NCBI GenBank assembly: GCA_964016885.1
Contig: OZ024753.1
Coordinates: 18,972,001-19,036,000 of the forward strand
Origin: Eledone cirrhosa
Lineage: Eukaryota
Length of the DNA stretch: 64,000 bases
Reading direction: 5' to 3'
Positions 3,262 to 47,031 of the stretch are shown here, piece by piece; positions within the stretch are counted from its first letter, which is position 1, and every line of letters begins with the position of its first letter. The position numbers and the translations under genes are program-made. The notes beneath the pieces are model-generated. The model was not told the DNA's origin and searched no databases. It was given only the letters and a program-made list of their open reading frames with translations.

Positions 3262-3307
3262 CCAGTCACTGAAGAGGTCACAGAATGTGTGACGAAATAA
3301 CTTTGAC
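3262..3307 (+). ncRNA. Hammerhead ribozyme motif (type I, minimal) in PLE A pLTR
   Basis: GTCA-CTGAAGA-G-GTCACA gaatg TGTGAC-GAAA-taac-TT-TGAC. A sister copy near 47700 (minus) has GAAA-GATC-TA-TGAC. Confidence 0.75.
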
Positions 3308-3445
3308 AATATATAAACAACCAACTGGAAATTTAAACATTTCAAAATTTATAAATTTATTATAATAAATTGAAGTGAAAGCAGCAGGTGCGTGTGTTTC
3401 TTATTGGCAACATGACCCTCCCAAAGTATAACAATATATATATAT

Positions 3446-4200
3446 ATGAAAGACGTAAATAAGAACGTTATGAAAATTGACTTACTTACTAAAATTTCAC
3501 TCCAACTAATTAGTTTCTGTAAGGGGATAAATATAGTTATGTAATAACTATAGAGAAGCCTTACGTCATCTGGGAGTCTATTCTCAGCTAAGTTTCCAGG
3601 CAATGAGGGGACACTGGGAACTTATATAAAAATAATTCAGTGGATGGAAAAAAACGAGCGGGGCTAGATTCCAAGCCATTGAAAAATTCACTGCCTTCTT
3701 GGTCAAGTGGCAAATTCAAAAGAATCAATCAAGTGACACTGAGGTTAACCAGCTTGGAGTGGGGGTGCTATTAAGACAGAGCCTAGCTACTACTATCAGT
3801 CACAGTAGTAATTTGGTAAATTTTGCTCAAGAAATAATTTGGATGTAATTATAAAGAATTAATATATCTACCGACATATGTATACCGATGCATACCTACG
3901 CTAGCAGGTTCTATGCATGGGAATGCAGAACAATTATTTGAAAGACGTAAATAAGAAAGTAAGTAAATTTTCATAACTTTCTTATTTACGTCTTTCATAT
4001 AATTGTTCTGCATTCCCCTGCATAGAACCACAAAGTTACTAAGACAAAACATATATATCTGCTAGCATAGGTATGCATCGGCATACATATGTCGGTAGAT
4101 ATATTAATTCTTTATATATATATATATATATATTGTTATACTGGGAACTTAGCTGAGATTAGACTTCCCTGATGACGAAAGGCCTTCTCCATGTGTTCCA
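3446..4200. repeat. Copy of the ~525-bp HHR-bearing repeat family (minus orientation, with an internal fold-back at 3850-4115)
   Basis: Diverged homolog of 4886-6110. Flanked by (TA)n. Confidence 0.85.
3499..3577 (-). ncRNA. Hammerhead motif with branched stem II (core mutated to CAGAUGA)
   Basis: ACTCC-CAGATGA-CGTAAGG...CCTTACA-GAAA-CTAATTAG-TT-GGAGT. Confidence 0.65.
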
Positions 4201-4324
4201 TATATATAGATAGATAGATATATAAATATATATATATATGCAAAAGTTTTATTTAAAATTGTTGGGTTACAACGAGTAAATATTTTATAACTAATATAAA
4301 GCACTCAACAAGTTTTGGAGTAGA

Positions 4325-4693
4325 TATACGATATTAAACAAATGGAAACTATATTTATAAAACCATATTTATTTCATTATACATATTTCAGGGATAACAT
4401 ATTAAAAATATGGCATGCCTTCTTCAGATAAAATACAATATATAAGCAGTTTTATAAATACATTTGACGTACCATAAAATATTGATCAACTTCCATTTAA
4501 CTACCAAACCAACTTTTTTAAATGGAAGTTGATCAATATTTTATGGTACGTCAAATTTATTTATAAAACTGCTTATATATTGTATTTTATCTGAAGAAGG
4601 CATGCCAAATTTTTAATATGGTATCCCTGAAATATGTATAATGAAATAAATATGGTTTTATAAATATAGTTTCCATTTGTTTAATATCGTATA
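4325..4693. mobile_element. Fold-back mini-element (arms of ~175 bp), one HHR per arm
   Basis: 4325-4500 is the reverse complement of 4519-4693. The right end abuts (TA)n. Confidence 0.85.
4583..4648 (+). ncRNA. Minimal type I hammerhead ribozyme (mirror copy at 4370-4435, minus)
   Basis: TATTTTAT-CTGAAGA-AGGCATGCCA...TGGTATCCCT-GAAA-TATGTA-TA-ATGAAATA. AUA triplet and 8-bp stem I. Confidence 0.8.
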
Positions 4694-4885
4694 TATATAT
4701 ATATATATATATATATATATATATATATAGAGAGAGAGAGAGAGAGAGAGATATAGAGAGAGAGAGAGATTTATATAGATATATATAGATCTATAGATAT
4801 GTATATATATATATAGATATATATATATAGGTATATATATATATATATATATATATATATAGATAGATATATATAGATATATATA

Positions 4886-44500: not shown

Positions 44501-44927
44501 ATGTAAAAGTTAAACTGAAATAACAACACAATCGGTACAGTATATGGAGGGAATATATTAGGTTATCGCTTGAAATAGCAGGAATAGTGTCTTAACGTTT
44601 CTGGCGCTAGTCCTTTAGCAGAAGAAAGAATGATAAATAAGATAGGACGGCGGGTTGGAATTGAAAAAATGGCTTGAGTTAAAAATAACAGGTCTATTCA
44701 TGTTGCCATCCCTTGGTAACCTGTTGATGCCGGCGTTTTGAGTATAATACATTTTTTGTAGAAAATTGGATGATGGAGCACGTCTAACTGAAATGGAAGA
44801 AATCGTTTTTATTTCGAGCTATACGTGTGAGAGCCCGTGTGTATATGTGTGTGTGTGTATAAGTAAAATAATGTGAATGTGCTTGTAAGGGCGAAGCTGT
44901 GAGCAAAAGTATTTTATATATATATAT

Positions 44928-45648
44928 ATTAGAAATAGAAGCTTTCACCGTATTTTTGATTAAAGAAATTATGCCTAATAGTGGGCTTTAGAACCCTCAG
45001 ATAAATGGAAAAAAGATGAGTATTGACATACATAGGAGTCGAAACCACATCTTTGGTTATCCACACCACTATGTATGCTACCATTACACCAACACATCAC
45101 CCATCTCCTTCCATTCAGATTAGAAGCTACATTCTTAGCAAGTATAATGACAAATAAGTATGTTTGTTTTAAAACAGTGAGGAAGTTTGAAATTAGAAAT
45201 AGAAGCTTTCACTGTGGTTTTGACTAAAGAAATTTTAGCCTGATAGTACGTCAATACTCATCTTTTTCATTTTATCTGAGGGTTCTAAACCCCATTACCA
45301 GGCTAACATTTCTTTAGTCAAAAATACGGTGAAAGCTTCTATTTCTAATTTCAAAATTGCTCACAGTTTAAAAACAAACGTACTTACTTGTCATTTTACT
45401 TGCTAAGAATGTAGCTTCTAATTTGAATGGAAGGAGATGGGTGATGTGTTGGTGTAATGGTAGCACAGTGGTGTGGATAACCAAAGATGTGGGTATCGGC
45501 TCGCATGTTCGTCAATACTCATCTTTTTCCATTTATCTGAGGGTTCTAAACGCCACTATCAGGTTAAAATTTCTTTACTCAAAGATACGGTGAAAGCGTC
45601 TATTTCTAATTTCAAACTTGCTCACTGTTTCAAAACAAACATACTTAT
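44928..45648. repeat. Inverted plus tandem array of a ~260-bp unit containing tRNA-like A/B boxes
   Basis: 44928-45247 is inverted relative to 45250-45648. TGGTGTAATGG and GGTTTCGACTCC boxes are present. Another fragment lies at 47835-47915. Confidence 0.75.
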
Positions 45649-45724
45649 ATATATATATATATATATATATATATATATATATATATATATATATATATAT
45701 ATATATATATATATATATATATAT

Positions 45725-46632
45725 ATTAAAATAACAGATTAAAGTTTAAGCAAAGAATCGCTGCTTTCACCCTTAACGGGATCATCGGAAACTAAAAAAA
45801 TCAATCTGTGAACGCAGAAGTAAATATTTTGAGAAACGTTGCAGTCGAAGGAAAACACGAAGACGATACATTGGGTCGTGAAGACGTTCCCTGGCACAAA
45901 ACGGAAAAAAAAGCGAAGAAAATACGTCGCTATGTGGAGCGGGAGAAAATTACACACAACGACAAAACCACGTTTATGGTATAAATGAAGTTGTAGACTA
46001 ATATTCTATTTAGGAAACTGAATGATTCTCGGCTTCGCAGTTAAGAATAATGTAAATATATTAGTAGAACGAAAATGGCAGAGTTTATAAAAAACATTAA
46101 TTATTATTGTTTTTAATAACCTCTGTCATTTTCACCCTTATGGGGTCGATAAAATAAAGTACCAGTAATACACAGGGTAATTGCTGGCCTTGTGCCAAAA
46201 GTAGAAACAATTATTCTTAACTCTGAAGCCGAGAATCATTCGGTTTCCTAAATAGAATATTAGTCTACGACTTCATTTATACCATAAACGCGGTTGTGTC
46301 TTTGCGTGTAATTCTCCCACGCTCCACATGACGACGTAGTTTCTTCGCTTTTTTCCGTTCATTACCAGGGAACGTCTTCACGAACCAAAGTATCGTCTTC
46401 CTGTTTTCCTTCGGGTGCAACGTTTTTCGAAATATTTACTTCTACGTTCACAGATTGATTTTTTTTTTTGTAGTTTCAGAAGATCCCGTTAAGGGTGAAA
46501 GCAGCGATTCTTTGCTTAAACTTTAATCTGTTATTTTAATAAATATTTGCTCTAGGGTTCTTATATATTTGATATATATTTATCCTGATCGAGCTCTACT
46601 TTGAATTTAGTCTTCACATTTATTATATTACT
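45725..46632. mobile_element. Long fold-back element of family X with a SINE 3' end in the loop
   Basis: Arms about 45725-46051 and 46210-46541. SINE tail at 46128-46215. Confidence 0.85.
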
Positions 46633-46943
46633 ATATATATATATATATATATATATATATATATATATATATAAATCTACCAAAATATACGGTAGTGTCC
46701 AATCCGTTTGAAGAACTCAATGTAATCCAAATATCATGAAAAGAGGAGATGCATTCAAAAATGTTCGATGAAAATCACAGGAAAAAAAAAATATATATAT
46801 ATGAGAGAGAGAGAGAGAGAGAGAGAGAGGGAGAGAAAGAAAGAGAAAGAGAGAGAGAGAGAGAGAGAGAGATAGAGAGAGAGAGAGAGAGAGAGAGAGA
46901 GAGAGAGAGAGAGAGAGAGAGAGAGAGAGAGAGAGAGAAGCAG

Positions 46944-47031
46944 CTACAGGTCTAGAACTGGTTCATTCGTGAGAAATCATTAGGAGCTTCCTGATTATTT
47001 CTCACGAATAAAACAGTTCTAGTCCTGTAGA
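46944..47031. repeat. Small palindrome whose two arms give an HHR consensus
   Basis: The arms read CTGATTA..AAAA and CTAATGA..GAAC. Their consensus is CTGATGA..GAAA. Confidence 0.65.

Follow-up and report, generated by a model that had tools for sequence, protein, structure and literature searches.

What are the short inverted repeats with hammerhead ribozymes (HHRs) that lie in (TA)n sequence along a 64,000-nt stretch of the Eledone cirrhosa genome (3.0 Gb; contig OZ024753.1, positions 18,972,001 to 19,036,000; the whole stretch is called the window below)? An earlier inspection of the letters alone (the sequence-only reading) had listed seven such sites as open reading frame (ORF)-less elements of unrelated families sharing one layout, and had offered two origins: minimal integration products of Penelope-like elements (PLEs), or a self-propagating class of hairpin retrozymes. 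We found that the palindromes and HHR motifs are real but represent two known element kinds, not one new class. Five of the seven are leader or pseudo-long terminal repeat (pseudo-LTR) pieces of autonomous PLEs, and the other two are, by layout, ORF-less retrozymes. The five hairpins are probably head-to-head leader pairs that arise when both strands of a (TA)n site prime cDNA synthesis and the enzyme copies an uncleaved RNA as far as its capped 5′ end, where it runs off. This start-site reading of the mechanism is what is new here; the two element kinds were known.

The window is rich in PLE fragments and (TA)n. Families are labelled by the start positions first assigned to them, A (4325), B (4886), C (16841), D (17396), E (23418), F (24135) and G (46944), and plus or minus offsets take the HHR core's first base as their origin. 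Self-BLAST recovered inverted structures at all seven sites; self-inverted matches were 85-99% identical at six of them, and in the 4886-6110 unit the inverted arm was 92% and the tandem repeat 96% identical. The axis had been placed close upstream of the core, and it lies 0-90 nt upstream in the five simple hairpins. Four elements carry one-sided PLE tails beyond the limits first drawn for them (4240-4328, 16808-16843, 17256-17401 and 47031-47118). The elements are as follows, with clade names taken from motifs:

4240..4691: family A stub palindrome, Hydra-type PLE leader; tailed minus arm (tail 4328-4240), tail-less plus arm
4591-4640 (+) and 4427-4378 (-): family A HHRs, both intact in the descriptor scan, AUA triplet; parent ORF at loci L231/L232
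4886..6110: family B, ORF-less retrozyme by layout; short inverted arm 4888-5082 and about two tandem 525-nt units
5458-5530: family B HHR, intact, GUU, long helix II; second copy at 5983 mutated
3447..4200: diverged family B copy at 3447-4112, core at 3572 minus; plus fragment 4141-4200
6158..8675 (-): 5′-truncated family F PLE, Hydra-type; ORF pieces 8675-7228, pseudo-LTR HHR 6250-6196; this PLE (8675-6158) provides an in-window parent for the 24135 stub
16808..17250: family C stub palindrome, Neptune-type PLE leader; tailed minus arm (tail 16843-16808)
16993 (-): family C core with a helix I mismatch; plus-arm core at 17096 mutated; parent locus L243
17256..17716: family D stub palindrome, Hydra-type; tail 17401-17256, axis within the core at about 17558; this copy lacks a complete HHR; parent loci L240/L237
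23418..24112: family E, ORF-less retrozyme by layout; 1.6 units of about 320 nt (minus) and an inverted arm
23622 (-) and 23943 (+): family E cores, U3-A8 covariant, both damaged
24135..24560: family F stub palindrome of Hydra type; axis near 24302, tail 24470-24560
24372-24426 (+) and 24232-24178 (-): family F HHRs, both intact
46944..47118: family G stub palindrome of Hydra type; axis near 46985, 6 nt ahead of the core; tailed plus arm to 47118; both cores mutated in this copy
2914..3434 (+): inverted 5′-truncated arm with a minimal HHR at 3269, belonging to a PLE with ORF pieces 2464-438 (minus)

All families recur across the genome. Exact-pattern searches, whose copy numbers depend on the pattern and are lower bounds, returned at least 12,048 copies of F, 6,728 of C, 2,204 of G, 1,777 of E, 1,422 of A, 528 of D and 33 of B; reversed-pattern controls returned 0. 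The description of the families as ORF-less held for B and E, whereas the other five trace to PLE ORFs. F parents, with ORFs of 738-821 aa, occur in long inverted pairs and in tandems with a unit of 3334 nt; the A and D parents form tandem units of 4091 and 3250 nt that contain ORF pieces. The G HHR immediately precedes ORFs of 696-759 aa in 9 of 16 fetched stretches, found via a protein search; a microsatellite zone blocked the upstream walk from G at 21/21 loci. The C parent has ORFs of 476 and 775 aa with RVT_1, a Neptune linker and, at the C terminus, a GIY-YIG domain, within an 8.4-kb palindrome (L243). In all five families the parent has a reverse transcriptase (RT) and GIY-YIG ORF framed by pseudo-LTRs, as in endonuclease-positive (EN+) PLEs; both stub 3′ ends lie upstream of the parental ATG, and long copies run on into the parent ORF, which sets the stubs apart from retrozymes. 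The PLE insertion signature, namely an inverted 5′-truncated copy, a one-sided tail and a (TA)n target, is also present. The proposal of minimal PLE integration products is supported for all five simple hairpins, each the pseudo-LTR of an autonomous PLE. In a protein screen reaching 1.5 kb the parents of A, C and G went undetected (hits at 1, 0 and 0 of 30 loci), and its low counts for B and E (0 and 1 of 30) therefore do not prove these two parentless; the positive evidence for them as retrozymes is the closed tandem unit.

Judged by motifs, A, D, F and G are Hydra-type (RWK-like, DKT, CxCx5C linker, CxxC and CxH, with DKT absent from the A fragments examined) and C is Neptune-type (DKG, and a Cx2-5CxxC linker ahead of the C-terminal GIY-YIG), the latter assignment coming from motifs and not from a tree. 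Pfam matches were obtained for family C alone; the Hydra-type ORFs were recognised by motifs.

A descriptor for type-I HHRs (helix I of at least 4 and helix II of at least 4 pairs, palindromic helix III, canonical core) identified seven in the window, five of them inside the listed elements, versus 0 in 20 local dinucleotide shuffles. An Rfam scan of the window gave 143 weak matches, with hammerhead absent among them. The claim of an outward-facing HHR holds for every family once genomic copies are included; within the window, the only intact HHRs are those on the two arms of A, those on the two arms of F and that of a single B copy, and the copies at 17396, 23418 and 46944 are truncated or mutated. 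The families differ in detail: the cut triplet is AUA in A and F, C has a 3-bp helix II closed by a U-U pair, loop 2 of D spans about 70 nt, helix III of G has 4 bp, and E has a U3-A8 core. Compensatory changes were seen in helix I of G (between subfamilies) and in helix II of B and of E, tallied among pattern-fitting copies only. Both U3-A8 and the U-U closing pair (U10.1-U11.1) are known HHR variants (PMC3088659; here and below, statements about published work refer to the accessible text of each source). In core, helices and covariation, the motifs of these families correspond to type-I hammerheads, and self-cleavage is predicted.

Stubs retain the cut site together with the sequence flanking it in either direction, so that their template was probably uncut. 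We also considered HHR-cleaved RNA as a main template in family F and rejected it. Palindromes whose axis falls no more than about 15 nt from the cut number only 35 (8 of them turn at the cut site itself), set against 2134 that turn at the upstream edge and have a gap of 110-140 nt; turning near the cut is not clearly above background. All 15 cut-site-turning F pairs examined were short. As a separate observation, the 8.4-kb palindrome at L243 (G000:C1:21871500-21881200) joins two full-length, 99% identical Neptune-type copies, tailed at both ends, about an axis that is the first base after the HHR cut site; this single case is a possible fossil of cleavage in vivo.

Whether the axis is fixed had been put forward as the way to tell an element of its own from independent truncations. 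We tallied inverted-pair spacings by hand among the first 100 matches of each family, from unselected lists. The spacings are bimodal, in F with 15/33 pairs at 135-161 nt and 16 at 1-5 kb; short spacings account for 16/23 pairs in C (80-126 nt), 8/9 in G (43-58 nt), 15/35 in A (70-212 nt) and 7/18 in D (95-189 nt). Arms end at hard 5′ edges, at -69/-70 in F, -44 in C, -6 in G and -89 in A, every edge being an A after a pyrimidine, and the edges are one-sided, with few arm ends just upstream. The axis is therefore fixed in four families, yet this does not establish an element of its own, as parents exist; stubs can have a fixed axis and still be parent-derived because the fixed point is likely an RNA 5′ end.

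Several features point to these family-specific edges as likely capped transcription starts. A TATA box precedes the edge by 31 nt in 6/7 distinct contexts of C and by 30-32 nt in 13/14 contexts of G, and this spacing is kept across diverged subfamilies with diverged surroundings. In F, a G stands before the edge at 9/21 free junctions versus 1/26 long copies (p=0.0026), after 34 junction rows were set aside as ambiguous or explained by the other arm and with 3-4 of the 21 not true junctions; 25/26 long copies have C at this position. Copying an RNA cap leaves an extra G. A full-length G copy (L383) begins at -7, the same edge as the stubs. In Drosophila virilis Penelope, the start site lies within the pseudo-LTR (PMC2377424).

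The opposite ends of the arms are equally regular. Each family has two fixed 3′ ends, one short and one tailed, about 25-210 nt after the cut site. Among 142 short pairs (F 52, A 20, C 25, D 10, G 35), 122 combine one tailed with one short end (F 49/52, A 18/20, C 18/25, D 7/10, G 30/35), as do 15/15 further F pairs, which overlap this set, and 23/25 long pairs. The arms of a pair share subfamily variants far above random pairs, with mismatch within versus between pairs of 0.011 versus 0.40 in F, 0.00 versus 0.51 in A, 0.16 versus 0.49 in C and 0.14 versus 0.47 in G; thus, one RNA usually serves both arms. As to the TA-rich flanks first noted, TA adjoins both ends in 48/52, 18/20, 8/10, 20/35 and 5/25 pairs, by family, the fraction among random 17-mers being 0.096. 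In F and A there is a second conserved hairpin immediately past the tailed end, and a twin-hairpin motif follows both ends, as found with a strict pattern that matched in 2/7 families. The Poseidon PLE in vitro cuts and extends both strands, uses two internal starts and accepts uncleaved RNA (PMC11167929).

These regularities suggest the following route. The PLE enzyme would cut both strands of a (TA)n site and prime one cDNA from each end, the two cDNAs beginning at the two fixed start sites just behind the ribozyme. Both arms would be first-strand cDNAs off one RNA, the downstream one displacing the other. The start sites lie an estimated 70-310 nt from the cap, so that an enzyme using the promoter-nearest copy would yield a brief run-off cDNA. 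This would resemble retroviral strong-stop DNA, except that it is integrated directly; use of a downstream copy of the start sites would give the long copies. The two cDNA 3′ ends would finally be joined via microhomology or a short fill-in.

The sequence-only reading had envisaged fold-back of the cDNA, and a single priming event followed by snap-back, in which the cDNA folds and copies itself and one arm loses its tail as the structure is resolved, is related to a published self-priming model (PMC3846280). Arms that nearly always share variants, a few private ones included, would fit it, as would the short palindromic overlaps or inverted fill-ins at many junctions. We nevertheless consider it unlikely: a self-copy cannot outreach its template or gain a tail, but among the 122 short pairs the tail-less arm is longer in 52 and the tailed arm in 31, with equal reach in 39, and among long F pairs the differences, of hundreds of bases, favour the tail-less arm in 7 and the tailed arm in 3. 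Because a self-copied cDNA cannot produce both of these outcomes, both arms are likely first-strand cDNAs. Nor would an antisense template stop at a position defined by a sense TATA box or add a G there. Instead of an RNA end, the axis could mark a sequence at which ordinary 5′ truncation is frequent, such as a local palindrome or a pause. The F edge does start with self-complementary ATAT, an overlap that is the commonest junction (9/38), and a tiny hairpin is possible at the C edge; one-sided edges, a TATA distance shared by two unrelated families, the extra G in F and a full-length G copy with the stub edge make this reading improbable.

That the hairpins propagate themselves, transcribed as hairpins and re-inserted as retrozymes, was the second origin initially proposed, and near-identical short palindromes do number in the thousands. 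One C subfamily (loci L061-L090, L306-L319 and L393-L426) has 24 short copies to 1 long, versus 53:22 for the rest (p=0.012), and may descend from a promoter-bearing master locus without a full body; in C, moreover, only 17/42 stub arms lie within one site of a sampled long haplotype. The corresponding values of 77/89 arms in F, 31/33 in G and 32/32 in A, together with many subfamilies and 18 junction types among 38 F stubs, speak against a self-propagating class. C and G stubs are without their TATA box, and in F and A the second hairpin past the tail end would be absent from a stub transcript although nearly all pairs are tailed; we therefore find self-propagation very improbable. Finally, short-read assemblies are known to have difficulty with inverted PLE insertions (PMC8557442), and the palindromes are known here from the assembly and not from raw reads. 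An assembly artefact is nonetheless extremely unlikely, given arms that differ by 1-6% on average, family-specific and asymmetric ends, varied junctions and recurrence thousands of times on chromosome-scale contigs.

Twin priming with run-off at a capped end thus remains the probable explanation, and several observations weigh against it. The start site itself is deduced from DNA sequence. No TATA box is present at -31 in A, D or F, the extra G is established in F alone (the test in C, G and A gave no clear signal either way), and A and D show neither mark of run-off. D, with 10 pairs, has no clear edge, and in one long F copy the pre-edge position is natively a G. The F arm-end histogram is conditioned, as 35 F short pairs were picked by gap length, and small differences in arm reach are sensitive to the alignment at the junction. 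The one-tail rule is violated by 20/142 short pairs. Some C arm pairs differ at several variant sites, and in one chimeric join C is fused to E with no TA between them (L141/L066, G000:C1, about 4923400-4923700), set against 206 homologous joins; from these two observations, two RNAs appear to be used sometimes. The C-E join suggests that a single break served for copying both RNAs, and it is a hint that E may have a Neptune-type helper.

B and E are the two cases in which the retrozyme alternative succeeded; the single layout initially perceived, inverted arms with an HHR, had hidden these two classes. Their ORF-less units, of about 525 nt in B and about 318 nt in E, close on themselves in tandem, the tail running into the head, and E forms arrays with 318-nt spacing (15 pattern copies in L249). 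The longest ATG-initiated ORFs in the units are 60 and 65 aa, respectively, and E showed no kb-scale inverted pairs among the first 100 matches. Both families have two fixed 3′ ends and 5′ ends scattered round the unit, as would be expected of a circular or multimeric template. They are likely copied by the same PLE enzymes through the same two-ended route, which here would act on circular or multimeric RNA without a fixed 5′ end.

Inverted copies, tails and (TA)n targeting were already known for PLEs (PMC8557442), and the accessible texts of PMC8557442, PMC3846280 and PMC11167929 state the origin of the inverted copies and one-sided tails, and the role of the ribozyme, to be open. A, D, F and G resemble Hydra-clade EN+ PLEs in RW(K/R), DKT, CxCx5C and CxxC/CxH motifs around the endonuclease E and N, and in their pseudo-LTR HHR, (TA)n targeting, inverted 5′-truncated copy and one-sided tail (PMC8557442). 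They differ in unit length (3.2-4.1 kb here) and in tails of about 65-140 nt versus 30-40; stand-alone short palindromes with a fixed edge, a main product here, are not described in the accessible text of that paper. The family C parent shares DKG, Cx2-5CxxC, RVT_1 and the C-terminal GIY-YIG with the Neptune clade (motifs from PMC8557442). Of 100 sampled C copies, 77 stop short of the upstream promoter sequence. In Schistosoma mansoni, dual minimal HHRs 100-700 bp apart on opposite strands, the layout of our stubs, have been ascribed to truncated PLEs (PMC4209133); that report, in the text available, contains no axis, tail or start-site analysis, and the HHRs here often have a longer helix III or a very long loop 2. 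Anolis Poseidon likewise has two internal RT starts that bracket a tail, and a promoter presumed in the pseudo-LTR, but its starts lie within the ORF without per-strand preference (PMC11167929), whereas here they lie in the 5′ leader and one of each is used per insertion.

B and E match metazoan non-LTR retrozymes, proposed to be PLE derivatives, in being ORF-less, tandem, A+T-rich, PLE-coexisting and equipped with a type-I HHR (PMC7229834; bioRxiv 10.64898/2026.07.22.740005). In the same sources, invertebrate circles measure 170-400 nt, versus 525-537 nt for B. B and E also differ in that they lie scattered in (TA)n and have inverted arms and paired ends of PLE type; such ends on ORF-less retrozymes bear on a link previously proposed from co-occurrence and sequence similarity. 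Our literature search, with subscription papers and supplements outside its reach (supplements may list such copies or HHR variants), returned no account of start-site-bounded PLE stubs or twin priming.

The stubs, in their thousands, provide base-level predictions of the start site, of both priming sites and of uncleaved RNA as template in Hydra-type and Neptune-type elements, for whose clades we encountered no biochemistry, and argue against the antisense self-priming model (PMC3846280). More tentatively, PLEs may have an integrated strong-stop product: with both reverse-transcription start signals placed close behind the cap, the enzyme would often copy nothing but the uncleaved leader, starting from either end of a single break. 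Promoter-bearing solo pseudo-LTRs would then act as masters similar to short interspersed nuclear elements, giving rise to hairpins alone (as in the short-rich C subfamily), and the same two-ended reaction would insert circular retrozyme RNAs. If so, stubs would constitute a genome-wide fossil map of PLE transcription starts, and the ribozyme would mostly leave the template uncut. Such palindromes could be misfiled as miniature inverted-repeat transposable elements or microRNA precursors; Rfam gave sub-threshold microRNA matches at two of them.

The window holds further elements. A palindromic family H with a 5-bp helix III occurs at 8738-9017, 24581-24970, 31865-31926 and 45726-46631; its HHR core has A at position 4 in 22/25 copies, a change (U4A) that is not among the variants in the accessible text of PMC3088659, which does describe U4C. 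An additional intact HHR lies at 9218-9262. Further PLE ORF fragments lie at 10675-12252, 13808-14326 and 15024-16667, and two of these three resemble the Hydra-type parents. Other inverted repeats (85-98%), outside the sites first listed, were found at 40556-41080, 44929-45609 and 55000-55430. More than 10 copies of an about 190-nt repeat, which may be tRNA-derived, occupy TA-rich sites, some in tandem (12846-13036, 18933-19139, 48711-49130, 53568-53940 and others). Weak RVT_1 fragments and a C2H2 zinc-finger frame lie at 42116-43514, 56985-57521, 57920-58405 and 60280-60936, and a 1049-aa ORF resembling those of long interspersed nuclear elements starts immediately right of the window (L108:2-3148).

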